Below are positions 7,742-17,526 of a stretch of DNA of 22,476 bases, one piece after another (within the stretch, counting starts at the first letter, position 1; every line of letters begins with the position of its first letter). The DNA lies in IMG/VR virus record IMGVR_UViG_2541047936_000005. One strand, 5' to 3'. Position numbers and translations under genes: made by a program. This stretch comes from a virus (Duplodnaviria; Heunggongvirae; Uroviricota; Caudoviricetes). The notes under the pieces were generated by a model. That model had not been told where the DNA came from, did not search any database, and saw only the letters and a program-made list of their open reading frames with translations.

Positions 7742-9592
7742 TTATGCTGCCGGTGCATTTATCTCCAGCATCAGACTTTCTATCTCAACGCCATACGCTG
7801 CATTTTTTGTAACATCCGTCAGCGTCAGCGCATTCAGTCCCAGTGTCAGACTGTCTTTTATAACCTGGAATGCCGGGCCAGCCACTCCATTCAGTTTCGG
7901 AGTAACCGTGGCACTGCCGGCGGTGAACACCAGCTCCAGCGTCTGCCAGTCGTTACCGTAATCGCCGAACTCCCCCAGCTTCGTGTTTCCGGCTTTCCTG
8001 TGATGCATCAGATTCACTCTGCCGTCAGTGGTCTGAGTGAAGTACGACATCAGGAACGGATTACCGGTACCCGTCATCGCCACACCATCAGGAACGGGAG
8101 CATCCGTATACAGATAAATCCCCAGCCCGAACTGATTGTTGGTCAGTGCGCCTGACAGGCGGAACTTACAGGTCAGTCTGCCGCCCTGTGTCAGCAGGGT
8201 AATTGCGTCATCCACCGGATGCGTCAGGGACCAGGTTTTATTGCTCTGCTTGGTGATCTTAAATACACCATCTGACAACTGAATTCCGCCATCCTTAATG
8301 CTCCAGCCCTGCGCAGCAGCCTCTCCGGCTGCCGGCAGCAGGGAGATTGTGCGAACGGACGTATCTGCAGACGGACCCGATGGCGTGTTGCCGCCGGGCG
8401 AGGGTTTGATTTCCGGTGCCTTACCACTGATGAAGGCTGAGGTGCGCCCGGCTGCGTTCAGAATAGCGGTTGCCAGACGATCCGGAATAATGCTCCTGCG
8501 CGCCCATGAACTGAAATGTGTCGGGCGGTTTGATGATACCTGGTTTCCATTCGTTCTCGATGCCGCACCGTAATATCCTGATGCCGGAATATCCGGATCT
8601 TCTGCCGGCGCGTTAGTGGCGGTATTGACGCCGTTACCATCTGTCATGAAGGGCACAAAATAAACGCCCTCACTCTCCCTGTTTTTATACCCGCCGTACA
8701 CGGTGTCGTACTGGGTAGCGTATGTATTTTTCCAGTAATACGTCGTGTCACCACAAACCCACGGCACATCTGCAGCACTGCCACCATGGCACTGCGCGTT
8801 AAACACGGAGAGGTCAGCACGAAACTGTGTCAGCATGGCTGTAAACAGCGCAGGTTGCTGTGCGTGGGTGGCGGCGCTCATGTCAAACTCACCCTGCATC
8901 CAGCAGACGGCCAGCAGAACGTTTTTGGGATTTTTCTGCAATGCCGCTTTTGTGCGGGAAATCAGATCCTGATATAACGGCTTGCCCACCCCCCAGCGTG
9001 CCGAATCCTGACTGGCCCCCGTGGACTCGCTGAATGTCCCCTCCGCGCCCTGGGTAAATGCCGAACCACCACGACAGCATGGTACCAGCAGGATCCCCGC
9101 GTTATTCGGGATATACGGGAGCAGTTTTTTGGCAATATGTAAACCCTGACCGACACAGCCGTACTGCCCTTTGCTCAGGTCAGCCCTCGGATGATTCAGC
9201 GTACTCATATCCTGCACATCATGCAGACAGTGGTCAGCCGGAATAATATCGTTATATCTGCAGGCAGCCCCGCCCGGCGTCACTGTACTGCGGCGCGCCA
9301 GCTGTTTAATGCGCGGATCCGGAGCATCGTATGAATCCGGCAGCGGAAGCCCTTCACCGTAAGCCATGGCATTGGACTGCCCGGCCAGTACGATGACGTA
9401 GTACCAATCCGGCTCAGATGAAGGGCCGACCTGTGGCTCTCCTTCAATAGCCACCGCCTGCATCAGTGTGTACGGCGTAATGGCAACCGGTCCGCCGTAT
9501 GGCTGCCAGCCCTCTTTCAGTTTGTGTGTCAGCTTTTCCGCAAGGTCTGACGGCGACGCCGCCCTGACAACATCGTAATGTTTAATCGACAT
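7742..9592 (-). CDS. nanS: Prophage NanS-p-type sialate O-acetylesterase (616 aa)
   Basis: GQSNAMAYG motif typical of SGNH/SASA esterases after an N-terminal domain; size and position immediately upstream of S-R-Rz match NanS-p genes of EHEC lambdoid prophages. Confidence 0.75.
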   Translation of the reverse strand: MSIKHYDVVRAASPSDLAEKLTHKLKEGWQPYGGPVAITPYTLMQAVAIEGEPQVGPSSEPDWYYVIVLAGQSNAMAYGEGLPLPDSYDAPDPRIKQLARRSTVTPGGAACRYNDIIPADHCLHDVQDMSTLNHPRADLSKGQYGCVGQGLHIAKKLLPYIPNNAGILLVPCCRGGSAFTQGAEGTFSESTGASQDSARWGVGKPLYQDLISRTKAALQKNPKNVLLAVCWMQGEFDMSAATHAQQPALFTAMLTQFRADLSVFNAQCHGGSAADVPWVCGDTTYYWKNTYATQYDTVYGGYKNRESEGVYFVPFMTDGNGVNTATNAPAEDPDIPASGYYGAASRTNGNQVSSNRPTHFSSWARRSIIPDRLATAILNAAGRTSAFISGKAPEIKPSPGGNTPSGPSADTSVRTISLLPAAGEAAAQGWSIKDGGIQLSDGVFKITKQSNKTWSLTHPVDDAITLLTQGGRLTCKFRLSGALTNNQFGLGIYLYTDAPVPDGVAMTGTGNPFLMSYFTQTTDGRVNLMHHRKAGNTKLGEFGDYGNDWQTLELVFTAGSATVTPKLNGVAGPAFQVIKDSLTLGLNALTLTDVTKNAAYGVEIESLMLEINAPAA

Positions 9593-10134: not shown

Positions 10135-10893
10135 TTAAATTCTGGTCCTTACAATATCAACCTGAAGATTCTTATCTTGTGCTGATTGATAAATGACAAA
10201 CCTTTTACTACCTGCATTGAAAGAAGTAGACAAAACCAGACAATTATCATAACGAGCAAGAACATAATACCAACCATCATTATAATTAATCATTTCATAT
10301 TCTTTCTTAAACTGTGGTTTGTAATATCCTGTCAGAAATGAAAAAAGCCAAAAATATGCCACAAAAGCAATCATCACAATCTCAAAAAAATGTTTTTTTA
10401 TAAATGGCTTATCATAGAAGCATGATACCGATAAAAATCGCCCATAAGATCTTATCGAAATTGTAACCGCCAGCGCAATCGCTGCTGACAGTAGCAAAAG
10501 AGGTACCTGAATCTTCTGTCTCAATATAGAAAACTCAATAATTGCCGGCACAAACAATAATTCCACAGCAAAATAAAGGCGAAATACATTTAGCTCTTGC
10601 ATAGAATGTTTTCTTTTCACTGCGAAAAAGAATACAACACCAATACCCCAACCGATAAGAAATATAGCAATGACGATAACTGCAAAAAATAAACTTCTGG
10701 CAACATCATCAACACCTGCACCTACAATCCACCATGGGAAGCCGTAGTAAAAAGAAGTACCCCATCCATAGAAATAAGCACTCCCCCATCCAAGGCATCC
10801 CATGTAGGCAATAAAAAGTGAAGAACTCCTGAGCAGCGCACCATCCTTCATAACCACCCCAATACAAGATGATAACATTGGCTTACAACTCAT
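10135..10893 (-). CDS. Multi-pass integral membrane protein with C-terminal soluble domain (252 aa), function unknown
   Basis: Long ORF in very AT-rich DNA with several hydrophobic segments rich in aromatic residues; no family recognised. Confidence 0.55.
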   Translation of the reverse strand: MSCKPMLSSCIGVVMKDGALLRSSSLFIAYMGCLGWGSAYFYGWGTSFYYGFPWWIVGAGVDDVARSLFFAVIVIAIFLIGWGIGVVFFFAVKRKHSMQELNVFRLYFAVELLFVPAIIEFSILRQKIQVPLLLLSAAIALAVTISIRSYGRFLSVSCFYDKPFIKKHFFEIVMIAFVAYFWLFSFLTGYYKPQFKKEYEMINYNDGWYYVLARYDNCLVLSTSFNAGSKRFVIYQSAQDKNLQVDIVRTRI

Positions 10894-11214
10894 AACAAAA
10901 GCAATTCAATGCCGTCAAGAGGTTACAGGCTAAAAAAACTCTATTACATAGCAGCCAGCATGTTTACCGTACAAGTACAACTCAGGGCATAAAAACTACT
11001 CGGCGGCAGGTTATTGAGACTCATCAATGACATGTAAAAAACGCCCATTATTGGTGTCAAGTTTCCCCAAAGTTATTCAAAAAGTCAATATTATGCCGTT
11101 AATATGTTGCCATCCGTGGCAATCATGGCGCTAACGTGTGATCGCATTCAAAATGTTGTCTGCGATTGACTCTGAACCGCCCCGGGTTTCCTGGAGAGTG
11201 TTTTATCTGTGAAC

Positions 11215-12105
11215 TCAGGCTGCCAGATCATCGTTTCCGATGGAAGCATAATAAGCTTTTTCTGCTTCTGCCGGAGGAGTATGGCCCAGCCTTTCCAGCA
11301 ATCGTCGATTGTTATACCAGTCCACCCACGTGAGTGTGGCCAGTTCCACTTCTGCACGGTTTTTCCAGCTCTTACGGTGTATTACCTCCGCTTTGTAAAG
11401 ACCATTGATGCTCTCCGCCATCGCGTTGTCATACGAGTCGCCTGTACTTCCTGTTGATGCCAGTAATCCGGCTTCCTTAAGCCGCTGTGTGTAGGCCAGC
11501 GATACATACTGAGAACCTTTATCACTGTGATGGACCGTGCCGGACGGTCGACGGGCCCATAACGCCTGCTCCAGTGCATCCAGCACGAATGTCGTTTCCA
11601 TGGACGATGAGACCCGCCACCCCACGATGTATCCGGCAAACACATCAATGATGAACGCCACATAGACGAAGCCCCGCCATGTGCTGACGTAAGTAAAATC
11701 AGCCACCCACAGCTGGTCAGGTCGTTCTGCCACGAACTGACGGTTTACGCGGTCGCCTGCGGCAACGGCTTTCCGGCTGATGGTCGTACGGACCTTTTTA
11801 CCCCGGAGAACACCGGCAAGTCCCATAACCGCCATGAGGCGCGCCACTGTACATCTGGCCACCCTGATTCCTTCCCGTAACAACTGACGCCAGACTTTAC
11901 GCACACCGTACACCTGATGATTTTCATCGTATACGCGCTGTATCTCTCTCTTCAGCCAGTCATCGTGCTGCGCACGGGCACTGCGTTTATCCGGATGATG
12001 TCGCTGTTGCTGACAATGGTAATACGTTGACGGGACAATATGCAGTTCGCTGCATACCGGTCCGACCCCGTACTGCTCACGCAGCTTATCCAGCAGTGGC
12101 ATCAT
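11215..12105 (-). CDS. IS629 transposase OrfB (DDE integrase domain)
   Basis: 296-aa translation matches IS629 OrfB; overlaps orfA at an A6 slippery run consistent with a -1 frameshift. Confidence 0.9.
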
Positions 12106-12428
12106 TTTTTCCAGAGGCGGTCGAACTCCGCCTTCGCAAAATAAGCGGAAGCCTGGCGAAGGATATCGTTACTGCGGCGCAGTTCACGATTTTCACGTTC
12201 CAGCTCTTTCAGACGCTGACGTTCAGCGCTGGTGAGCCCACCATCACCGCCCCCGGTATCCCGCTCATGCTGGCGAACCCAGACACGCAGAGTCTCCGGC
12301 GTACAGCCAATCTTTGGGGCAATGGAACAAATTGCCGCCCACTGTGAGTCATATTCATCCTGACTTTCCAGAACCATACGGACTGCCCGTTGACGGACTT
12401 CGGGGGAAAAACGAGTATTTTTAGTCAT
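12102..12428 (-). CDS. IS629 transposase OrfA (helix-turn-helix and leucine zipper)
   Basis: 108-aa translation [22 protein letters not shown] matches IS629 OrfA. Confidence 0.9.
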
Positions 12429-12482
12429 CCTGTTTACCTCTTTCTCAGGAAGTTTAGTCTCCAGGATTCCCGGGGCGGTTCA

Positions 12483-12893
12483 ATCCCCCAATTTGAGGGA
12501 TGTTTTATCCCTCGTTTTAGGGGATTTTCCCTCGTTTTGAGGGATACACCATTCTGAGATGTTTTTATTTGGTCCAAACATGCCGCCTTGCTGCTTGATA
12601 ATATTCATTCTGACGAGTTCTAACTTGGCTTCATTGCACCGTTTGACAGGTAACTTTGTAATCTCGCTAAGTTGAGAATCGGTGATTCTGTCCATTGGTT
12701 TATTCCACCCATAGGTTCTACGCAGAATGGCAAGCAGCACTTTAAACTGTCGCTTGGTCAGATCTGCGCCTGAATAAGCCTCAAGCAGCATATTTGATAG
12801 TCTGGCGTAACCATCATCGAGATCTGCCACATTACGCTCCTGTCCGGCAAAGTTACCTCTGCCGAAGTTGAGTATTTTTGCTGTATTTGTCAT
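12483..12893 (-). pseudogene. O: Lambda replication initiator O, truncated after about 136 codons by IS629
   Basis: N-terminus MTNTAKILNFGRGNFAGQERNVADLDDGYARL matches lambda O (299 aa in lambda); the reading frame runs into the IS terminal repeat and stops. Confidence 0.85.
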
Positions 12894-12903
12894 AATGACT
12901 CCT

Positions 12904-12980
12904 GTTGATAGTTCCAGTAATAACCTCAGAATTCCATCTGGATTTGTTCAGAACGCTCGGTTGCCGCCGGGCGTTTTTTA
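12904..12980 (+). ncRNA. oop: oop antisense RNA with its terminator
   Basis: Sequence GTTGATAGTTCCAGTAAT...GTTCAGAACGCTCGGTTGCCGCCGGGCGTTTTTTATT matches lambda oop, antisense to the cII 3' end; a CATAAT -10 lies 7 bp upstream. Confidence 0.8.
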
Positions 12981-13219
12981 TTGGTGAGAATCGAAGCAAC
13001 TTGTCGTGCCAATCGAGCCATGTCGTCGTCGACGACACCCCATTCAAGAACAGCAAGCAGCATTGAGAACTTTGGAATCCAATCCCTCTTCCACCTGCTG
13101 ATCTGCGACTTATCAACTCCCACAGCTTCCGCTGTCTTCTCAGTTCCAAGCATTGCGATTTTGTTAAGCAACGCACTCTCGATTCGTAGAGCCTCGTTGC
13201 GTTTGTTTGCACGAACCAT
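12926..13219 (-). CDS. cII: Transcriptional activator CII (97 aa)
   Basis: MVRANKRNEALRIESALLNKIAMLGTEKTAEAVGVDKSQISRWKRDWIPKFS matches lambda CII. Confidence 0.9.
   Translation of the reverse strand: MVRANKRNEALRIESALLNKIAMLGTEKTAEAVGVDKSQISRWKRDWIPKFSMLLAVLEWGVVDDDMARLARQVASILTNKKRPAATERSEQIQMEF
13197..13210 (+). promoter_or_regulatory. pRE -35 region with CII-binding direct repeats TTGC-N6-TTGC
   Basis: TTGCGTTTGTTTGC as in lambda pRE, overlapping the cII start; drives + strand transcription toward cI. Confidence 0.7.
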
Positions 13220-13298
13220 ATGTAAGTATTTCCTTAGATAACAATTGATTGAATGTATGCAAATAAATGCATACACCATAGGTGTGGTTTATTTTGAT

Positions 13299-13330
13299 GC
13301 CCTTTTTCAGGGCTGGGATGTGTAAGAGCG
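13299..13330 (-). promoter_or_regulatory. nutR (boxB GCCCTGAAAAAGGGC and boxA CGCTCTTAC on the - strand)
   Basis: boxB reverse complement at 13299-13313 and boxA reverse complement at 13322-13330, between cro and cII. Confidence 0.75.
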
Positions 13331-13338
13331 GGAATGTC

Positions 13339-14691
<1,353 letters not shown>

Positions 14692-15374: not shown

Positions 15375-16244
15375 ATGAAGAAGATTGATTACAAGTCCAT
15401 ACCAAAACCAATAGACTCAGCATCAGAGCGAAAAAAACACAAAAAAGAGGCTGAAAAATTAGCAAATTATATCAGTTTTATTAGAAACAATGCTCACGGC
15501 GATGGCGACAAGAAGTTGCTTTCAGATGCTCGGACCCAAGCGTTCGGTATACTTCGTAAGCAGATGCAATATCGTCTTCATCCTGGCTACATAATTGAAA
15601 TTCGCCCTACTGAAAGACAATTGTTCTTATTAAACTCTGTCTTTGACTTTGTAAACGTAGTTGGAGATCTTATCGACAGGTCTGTAGATAAGGATCCTGA
15701 TACAAATAGTTTTCTTCTAACAAATAAAGAATACTTATATGGTAAATTCGGTATAAACGGATGGCAAAAATATGTACGCTTCTTACGTGCATTCGTTGAT
15801 GCGTATAAAAATTCCGACATGATTTATACATATTTGCCTGGTGGTGATAATTGTACGCTTTCGGCAGACAATAGAATATTCATACCTGTACTTGGTCTTG
15901 GGCTGATTAATGCAGTAAATGAAAAAGATGTTATAATTGTTAAGCAGTGGCGAAAATATGAGGGATATAGATATCTGCCATGCTTTGATATATTAAAAAT
16001 ACAGAATAAATTCTATGTAAAAATTAAATATAAAGAAGATATTTTCTTCCTCAGAAAAAACATAGATCTTTTACAAGAACTTTCTGGTACAATAGATGTC
16101 ATCTTAGGTTCTAGGTTTATAAAAGAACTGAAAGAAAGCAGGTCTTTCTCTCGTGTAGAGATAAGCGAGTCAGAGTTATGGGGTATATCAAATAATCCTG
16201 TAAACCACGCTCACCAACGAAACCCAAACAAAAAGTGGTCATAA
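15375..16244 (+). CDS. Uncharacterised 289-aa protein in the ral/sieB position (pL operon accessory gene)
   Basis: ORF overlapping or abutting the N stop (ATG at 15363 or 15375, the latter with GAGG 6 nt upstream); AT-rich; Lys-rich N-terminus; no recognisable motif; lambda ral and sieB are absent. Confidence 0.55.
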   Translation: MKKIDYKSIPKPIDSASERKKHKKEAEKLANYISFIRNNAHGDGDKKLLSDARTQAFGILRKQMQYRLHPGYIIEIRPTERQLFLLNSVFDFVNVVGDLIDRSVDKDPDTNSFLLTNKEYLYGKFGINGWQKYVRFLRAFVDAYKNSDMIYTYLPGGDNCTLSADNRIFIPVLGLGLINAVNEKDVIIVKQWRKYEGYRYLPCFDILKIQNKFYVKIKYKEDIFFLRKNIDLLQELSGTIDVILGSRFIKELKESRSFSRVEISESELWGISNNPVNHAHQRNPNKKWS

Positions 16245-17150: not shown

Positions 17151-17521
17151 CCCCCTTTCCTGTTTTCCTAATCAGCCCGGCATTTCGCGGGCGATATTTT
17201 CACAGCTATTTCAGGAGTTCGGCCATGAACGCTTATTACATTCAGGATCGTCTTGAGGCTCAGAGCTGGGCGCGTCACTACCAGCAGATAGCCCGTGAAG
17301 AGAAAGAGGCAGAACTGGCAGACGACATGGAAAAAGGCCTGCCCCAGCACCTGTTTGAATCGCTATGCATCGGTCATTTGCAACGCCACGGGGCCAGCAA
17401 AAAAGCCATTACCCGTGCGTTTGATGACGATGTTGAGTTTCAGGAGCGCATGGCAGAACACATCCGGTACATGGTTGAAACCATTGCTCACCATCAGGTT
17501 GATATTGATTCAGAGGTATAA
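17105..17521 (+). CDS. gam: Gam (138 aa), RecBCD inhibitor
   Basis: Matches lambda Gam, including the internal GamS start [21 protein letters not shown]. Confidence 0.95.
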
Positions 17522-17526
17522 AACGG

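Follow-up and report, generated by a model that had tools for sequence, protein, structure and literature searches.

An IS629-bounded deletion between O and Q in a lambda-like effector prophage at torS/torT of Escherichia coli

In the window analysed in this study (the whole 22,476-nucleotide stretch of DNA), a complete IS629/IS1203-type element connects a truncated replication gene O with the last codons of the antiterminator gene Q. Comparison with an intact relative confirms, at the level of sequence, that this arrangement is an IS-bounded deletion of about 4.7 kb and not a simple insertion. As the decisive evidence for deletion we take the separation of the two flanks of the element by 4,711 bp in the intact relative. 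The earlier note on this DNA had read the locus as an IS-mediated deletion or a recombination between two IS629 copies rather than as a simple insertion, and the flank separation bears out that reading.

Results and Discussion

The segment missing from the window

The intact relative used for comparison is the prophage of E. coli 2014C-3061 (locus L016), in which the genes are ordered O-P-ren-ninB-methyltransferase-ninE-ninF-ninG-Ser/Thr phosphatase-Q, followed by the same post-Q genes as in the window. The window up to position 11172 corresponds to L016 up to 1712, and the window from 12483 onward corresponds to L016 from 6424 onward. Both flanks are collinear with 2014C-3061, in the same order and orientation, and the rearrangement is therefore a deletion, not an inversion or a translocation. 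The deleted segment, for which the earlier note had recommended comparison with intact relatives, was thereby defined as the 4,711 bp between the two flanks, and it includes iteron 4 of the origin, the AT-rich region, the 3′ part of O, P, ren, ninB, the methyltransferase gene, ninE, ninF, ninG, the Ser/Thr phosphatase gene, and Q except for its last 13 codons. The previously noted losses of P and the nin region are thus real, while that of Q is incomplete, as a 13-codon stub survives.

The same junction mapping was obtained with the prophage of E2 (locus L002), of which the right flank is 100% identical to the window over 8,260 bp. The size of the gap depends on the reference, being 4,711 bp against 2014C-3061, approximately 3.74 kb against E2, and 0.82 kb against Z1323HEC0011. 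Both deletion endpoints agree to the base with the termini of the IS, the only ambiguity being a chance overlap of 1 bp (T) at one end and 2 bp (CA) at the other. Because both endpoints coincide with the IS termini, the deletion is ascribed to the IS.

Structure and boundaries of the IS element

The element consists of the following parts, identified by comparison of the terminal repeats, open reading frames, Pfam matches and identity to known copies.

11173..12482, minus strand: IS629/IS1203-type element of the IS3 family, complete at 1310 bp
12458..12482: left inverted repeat, at the end proximal to orfA
11173..11197: right inverted repeat, at the distal end of orfB and next to the Q stub
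12102..12428, minus strand: IS orfA, 108 aa, HTH_Tnp_1 domain, open frame
11215..12105, minus strand: IS orfB, 296 aa, HTH_21 and rve catalytic core, open frame

The terminal inverted repeats are 25 nt each, imperfect and 92% complementary, and the element starts and ends as TGAACC...GGTTCA. A run of six A residues lies at the 3′ end of orfA, within the overlap of the orfA and orfB frames; a programmed frameshift is annotated in near-identical IS copies of complete genomes, and the gene caller of the source assembly called a fused transposase of 404 aa. The transposase has the orientation of O and cII. The length of about 1.3 kb, the repeats of about 25 bp beginning with TG and ending with CA, and the orfA/orfB frameshift layout are those of IS629 within the IS3 family, in agreement with the earlier description of a full-length copy with intact terminal repeats. 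Nucleotide identity was 97.3% to the copy in O157:H7 F6294 (annotated as IS1203 family), 97.8% to that in strain 2013C-3264 (annotated as IS3 family) and 98.3% to those in FY26 and FDAARGOS_1301, all above the approximately 95% used for assignment to IS629/IS1203, the comparison being made with copies annotated in genomes.

The left flank runs into the element as ...GATTGACTC and the right flank leaves it as ATCCCCCAATT. After exact re-assessment of the boundaries, a target-site duplication was found neither at 3 bp (CTC and ATC, the difference already noted) nor at 4 bp (ACTC and ATCC). As controls, two simple insertions of the same IS, each checked against available uninterrupted sequence, carry clean 3-bp duplications, the duplicated bases being CCT for the insertion in the methyltransferase gene (strain 2013C-3264) and CTA for the one in O (O157:H7 F6294). 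The boundaries are secure because the same ends carry these clean duplications in both insertions. The F6294 copy, considered as a possible instance of the same insertion, was rejected, as it lies at a different site in O and has a normal duplication. A missing duplication alone is not unusual, because duplications were found at only 21 of the 47 IS629 sites in four O157 genomes (PMC3271280); in the window its absence reflects the deletion, and is no argument against the identity of the IS.

Truncated O and the replication origin

On the right of the element, the following features of the lambda-type replication region remain.

12480..12893, minus strand: truncated O (O′), 137 native codons, N-terminal Phage_rep_O domain only (Pfam match, E = 2e-36)
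12484-12501: ori iteron 3
12508-12525: ori iteron 2
12528-12545: ori iteron 1

The stop codon of O′ is supplied by the IS itself, of which the terminal TCA reads TGA on the minus strand, so that 137 of the 299 aa of the full-length O in relatives are retained. The origin is cut after iteron 3. The earlier note had considered the origin region as removed; this is right for iteron 4 and the AT-rich region, but iterons 1 to 3 remain (12484..12545).

The origin of lambda lies inside O and contains four iterons and an AT-rich region; this AT-rich region is the unwinding region, and the C-terminal part of O works with P. The window shares with lambda the N-terminal Phage_rep_O domain and lambda-type iterons within the O coding sequence, and differs from it by the lack of iteron 4, the AT-rich region, the C-terminal half of O, and P. 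The combination of four iterons, an AT-rich region and full-length O, which makes a functional lambda-type origin, is not present.

The Q stub and the genes downstream of Q

On the left of the element O does not resume, as had been stated, and the flank consists of the Q stub and the post-Q genes.

11131..11172, minus strand: Q stub, comprising the C-terminal 13 codons and the stop codon of the 207-aa antiterminator (ESIADNILNAITR*), identified against the full Q of Z1323HEC0011 and 2014C-3061
10135..10893, minus strand: TfpB/STM1630-family gene, 252 aa, function unknown, first gene downstream of Q (Pfam and gene order in relatives)
7742-9592, minus strand: nanS-p-type esterase
7088-7294, minus strand: holin
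6591-7088, minus strand: lysozyme
6157-6594, minus strand: Rz

The stub corresponds to codons 195-207 of Q, and with 13 codons left of this 207-aa protein a Q-dependent late switch is not present. The 252-aa open reading frame at 10135-10893 is not Q, since it gave no Q-family Pfam match and lies downstream of Q in relatives. The encoded protein is widespread (19,053 index blocks), and the usual place of its gene is just after Q. Downstream follow a DUF3927 gene, the esterase and then the lysis genes, as in many lambda-like prophages, the retained late genes occupying 6157..9592. As a side observation, the holin, lysozyme, Rz and esterase genes have stayed intact in spite of the loss of Q; the terminators of the nin region were also deleted, and one may speculate that N-modified transcription from pR might cross the IS into the lysis and esterase genes.

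Source and distribution of the junctions

Scaffold KE702336.1 of GCA_000461215.1, on which int adjoins torS, matches the window with 100% identity over 19,997 bp. The exact 137-aa O′, which is possible only with the junction of the window, is present in some 20 public contigs, four of which continue into the IS; all those examined showed an identity of 99.97% or more to the window. The presence of the O′/IS junction in about 20 near-identical contigs indicates that the scar is fixed in a clonal lineage. The whole IS and the left junction are spanned by the single draft scaffold, the other O′ contigs ending at or within the IS.

The left junction was absent from the set of 5,426 complete E. coli genomes, and so was the right junction apart from three near-misses in which the IS lies deeper in O, by 31 bp or 139 bp. 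Intermediates with a single insertion at the O or the Q site were likewise absent from the 5,426 genomes. In exact-pattern scans, such O-site or Q-site intermediates were found in neither the metagenome nor the species-representative collections. Copies of IS629-type elements are themselves numerous in such genomes, the median being 4 matching places per genome and the maximum 52.

Deletions in sister prophages and other IS-linked losses

Two sister prophages, those of Z1323HEC0011 (locus L005) and E2, are 99.6-100% identical to the window in the aligned blocks. That of Z1323HEC0011 shares with the window the torT/torS site and both late-region deletion junctions, which go with the loss of all terminase, head and tail genes; E2 is without those junctions. 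In Z1323HEC0011, codon 140 of O is joined by an IS-free deletion to the 3′ part of the phosphatase gene, within a 5-bp GGATA common to both ends (L005 23712-23740 against L016 2513-2540 and 6416-6430); it is located 8 bp from the O-side IS junction of the window, inside ori iteron 4. In E2, the genes from O through ninG are kept, and 964 bp from ninG to the middle of Q were lost, again without any IS, the aligned blocks overlapping by 5 bp at the junction (L002 13922-13926 against L016 2066-3029). We also considered the possibility that Z1323HEC0011 is an IS-excision product of a window-like ancestor, and this was rejected: native bases are kept on both sides of the window junction, and the join is in GGATA.

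The sister deletions affect the O-to-Q interval of the same family of prophages, each leading independently to loss of replication, nin or Q functions, but their junctions are IS-free with 5 bp common to the ends, whereas those of the window are IS termini with 1-2 bp of chance overlap. The gap of the window encloses both sister deletions, and therefore the IS-linked step may have removed anything from 0.82 kb to 4.71 kb, that is, 0.82 kb if the ancestor was Z1323HEC0011-like and otherwise up to 4.71 kb. Together with its sisters, the window offers a clear small example of parallel decay, by one IS-bounded and two IS-free routes. In addition, E2 carries an insertion of ISVsa5 (IS4-like) in the NleC fragment (L002 4235-5562) that is not present in the window, adding to the independent decay.

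A nested pair of IS-linked losses was found in finished genomes. In both FY26 and FDAARGOS_1301, the same IS3-family copy (3750-5060 in both loci) has a truncated O at one end and nin or Q-upstream DNA at the other, and FDAARGOS_1301 differs from FY26 by the further loss of 807 bp next to one end of this IS and of 108 bp next to the other. Both losses of FDAARGOS_1301 start at the IS ends, and neither copy is flanked by a duplication. The two genomes form a natural nested series, and provide a precedent for serial IS-anchored loss. Besides, in GCA_015687575.1 (L022 303-1831) an IS3-family copy directly joins the prophage int to a ren fragment and ninB, another large IS-bounded loss, again from the early region of a lambda-like prophage.

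Formation of the scar

The favoured explanation, which we consider probable though far from assured, is an insertion followed by adjacent deletion anchored at the IS ends. A lambda-like prophage at torS/torT, already carrying effector genes, would have received an IS629-type element at some point between O and Q, and one or two adjacent deletions, each anchored at an IS end, would then have removed the DNA between the IS termini and the present flanks. These deletions would be driven by the transposase, possibly with the help of an IS-excision enhancer protein. IS3 is known to make adjacent deletions of various lengths with preservation of the IS (PMC8860574).

The same final structure would be generated if two direct copies of IS629, one at the iteron 3/4 site with the duplication ATC and the other near the 3′ end of Q with CTC, had looped out 4.7 kb by homologous recombination and left one hybrid copy. 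The abundance of IS629-type copies in E. coli genomes and the finding that a related prophage has this IS, oriented as here, within the methyltransferase gene of this very module are in line with such a pathway. It requires, however, two nearby insertions plus a recombination step, neither parental insertion was detected among the 5,426 complete genomes or by the scans of the other collections, and the FY26/FDAARGOS_1301 series would call for these events to have happened twice, once at each end of the IS. We consider recombination between two copies rather unlikely, and as the sub-mechanism we infer adjacent deletion. Collapse by the draft assembler of two IS629 copies around an intact segment from the 3′ end of O to Q would also leave a single IS; the span of the whole IS by only one draft scaffold (GCA_000461215.1 KE702336.1) and the absence of both junctions from every complete genome of the collection would fit such an artefact. 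Yet no N occurs in the window, an assembler would normally stop at a repeat instead of dropping 4.7 kb of unique DNA, scars of the same type exist in finished genomes, and real deletions occurred in the same interval of the sister prophages, all of which makes an assembly artefact very improbable. For a simple insertion with a duplication since mutated or with misread boundaries, nothing speaks beyond the shortness of 3-bp duplications; this reading is practically untenable and already refuted, since the flanks are Q codons 195-207 and ori iteron 3, 4,711 bp apart in the intact relative, and the inverted repeats together with the two control insertions leave no doubt about the boundaries.

Beyond adjacent deletion as the favoured mechanism, the lambda-type origin in O could be a preferred landing or breakage site of IS629-type elements, and serial IS-anchored deletions a recurrent, possibly selected route by which effector prophages are locked, losing replication and Q but keeping their cargo. 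We hold this broader idea to be distinctly unlikely. The search was biased toward events near the site of the window, and the hotspot is a lead rather than a result; within about 250 bp of the iterons lie several independent events, namely those of the window, of FY26 and FDAARGOS_1301, the F6294 insertion, and the IS-free deletion ending 8 bp away, and the three independent deletions in the same interval among the sister prophages provide a further lead.

The deletion as such has parallels among the IS629/IS1203 deletions in O157 and other attaching-effacing E. coli, some of which are promoted by the enhancer: the type of IS, its location in a lambda-like prophage, the lack of a duplication and the deletion from an IS end are all alike (PMC9943667, PMC3271280, PMC8860574). 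Against those documented cases, the instance in the window, with an effector prophage at torS/torT and an end between iterons 3 and 4, is absent from the 5,426 complete genomes. It is an ordinary instance of a known process of E. coli prophage decay, and as such matters little beyond annotation and raises no new question.

Functions retained and consequences for the prophage

The genes for immunity, recombination and integration are retained as follows, identical proteins being annotated as intact in relatives.

12926..14290: intact immunity region
12926-13219, minus strand: cII, open and full length
13339-13554, minus strand: cro, open and full length
13658-14290, plus strand: cI, LexA-like repressor with S24 peptidase domain, open and full length
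17225..22476, plus strand: intact block from gam to int, open frames
17527-18312, plus strand: bet, intact
18309-18989, plus strand: exo, intact
21207-21425, plus strand: xis, intact
21403-22476, plus strand: int, intact

The N gene is also open and full length, with an identical protein annotated in relatives. The statement of the earlier note that int, xis and the Red functions stay intact is correct, as int, xis, exo, bet and gam are all open and full length. Terminase, head and tail genes, on the other hand, are all absent and were removed by other deletions: Rz is followed by a 148-bp fragment of J (tail tip; 5885-6032), a C-terminal fragment of a tail-fibre gene and then the effector genes (window 5885-6156). 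The effector cargo block (582-5636) contains the following genes.

582-1193: DUF1076 protein, of the kind annotated as NleG family in E2
2061-2909: Cif
3133-4023: kinase NleH
4332-4622: N-terminal fragment of NleC
4656-5636: NleB2

Between the effector genes are remnants of tail-fibre assembly genes and a fragment of an integrase pseudogene (approximately 1425-1951, annotated in relatives).

By analogy with lambda, we infer loss of replication and silence of the lysis genes from the late promoter. The prophage is predicted to be unable to replicate because the C-terminal part of O, the AT-rich region and iteron 4 of the origin, and P are all missing; and since Q is gone, the intact holin, lysozyme and Rz genes would not be switched on from the late promoter. 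The replication- and late-gene-defective state attributed earlier to the IS event is supported by the truncation of O and of the origin, the loss of P and that of almost all of Q, but other events also helped to disable the prophage, the terminase, head and tail genes having been deleted separately. With cI, N, int and xis intact, SOS induction should lead to excision without replication or particles. The prophage at torS/torT may accordingly be regarded as a carrier of the type III effector genes nleB2, nleH and cif that is locked and does not replicate; it probably can still be excised on SOS induction, and lost, with no phage production.

A similar degraded state is known for the defective prophages of O157 Sakai such as Sp3, which is without repressor and replication functions, has disrupted integration and morphogenesis genes, and was not seen to circularise (PMC2669165). 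The window resembles these prophages as a degraded lambda-like prophage with essential functions lost, still carrying nleB2, nleH and cif. Unlike Sp3, however, it has intact genes for the repressor, N, the Red functions, Int and Xis but no morphogenesis gene at all, and excision without replication is predicted.

Three accessory genes are located at positions typical of lysogen-expressed cargo.

14287-14691: accessory gene next to cI
15375-16244: accessory gene next to N
20155-20757: accessory gene in the exo-xis region

A scan of the window for promoters and terminators gave nothing decisive. When the accessory genes were compared with models of defence systems and phage families, matches were obtained only to phage families of unknown function and none to a defence system. 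In the accessory protein of 289 aa, the last 20 residues at the C terminus gave a weak Nun-like match.
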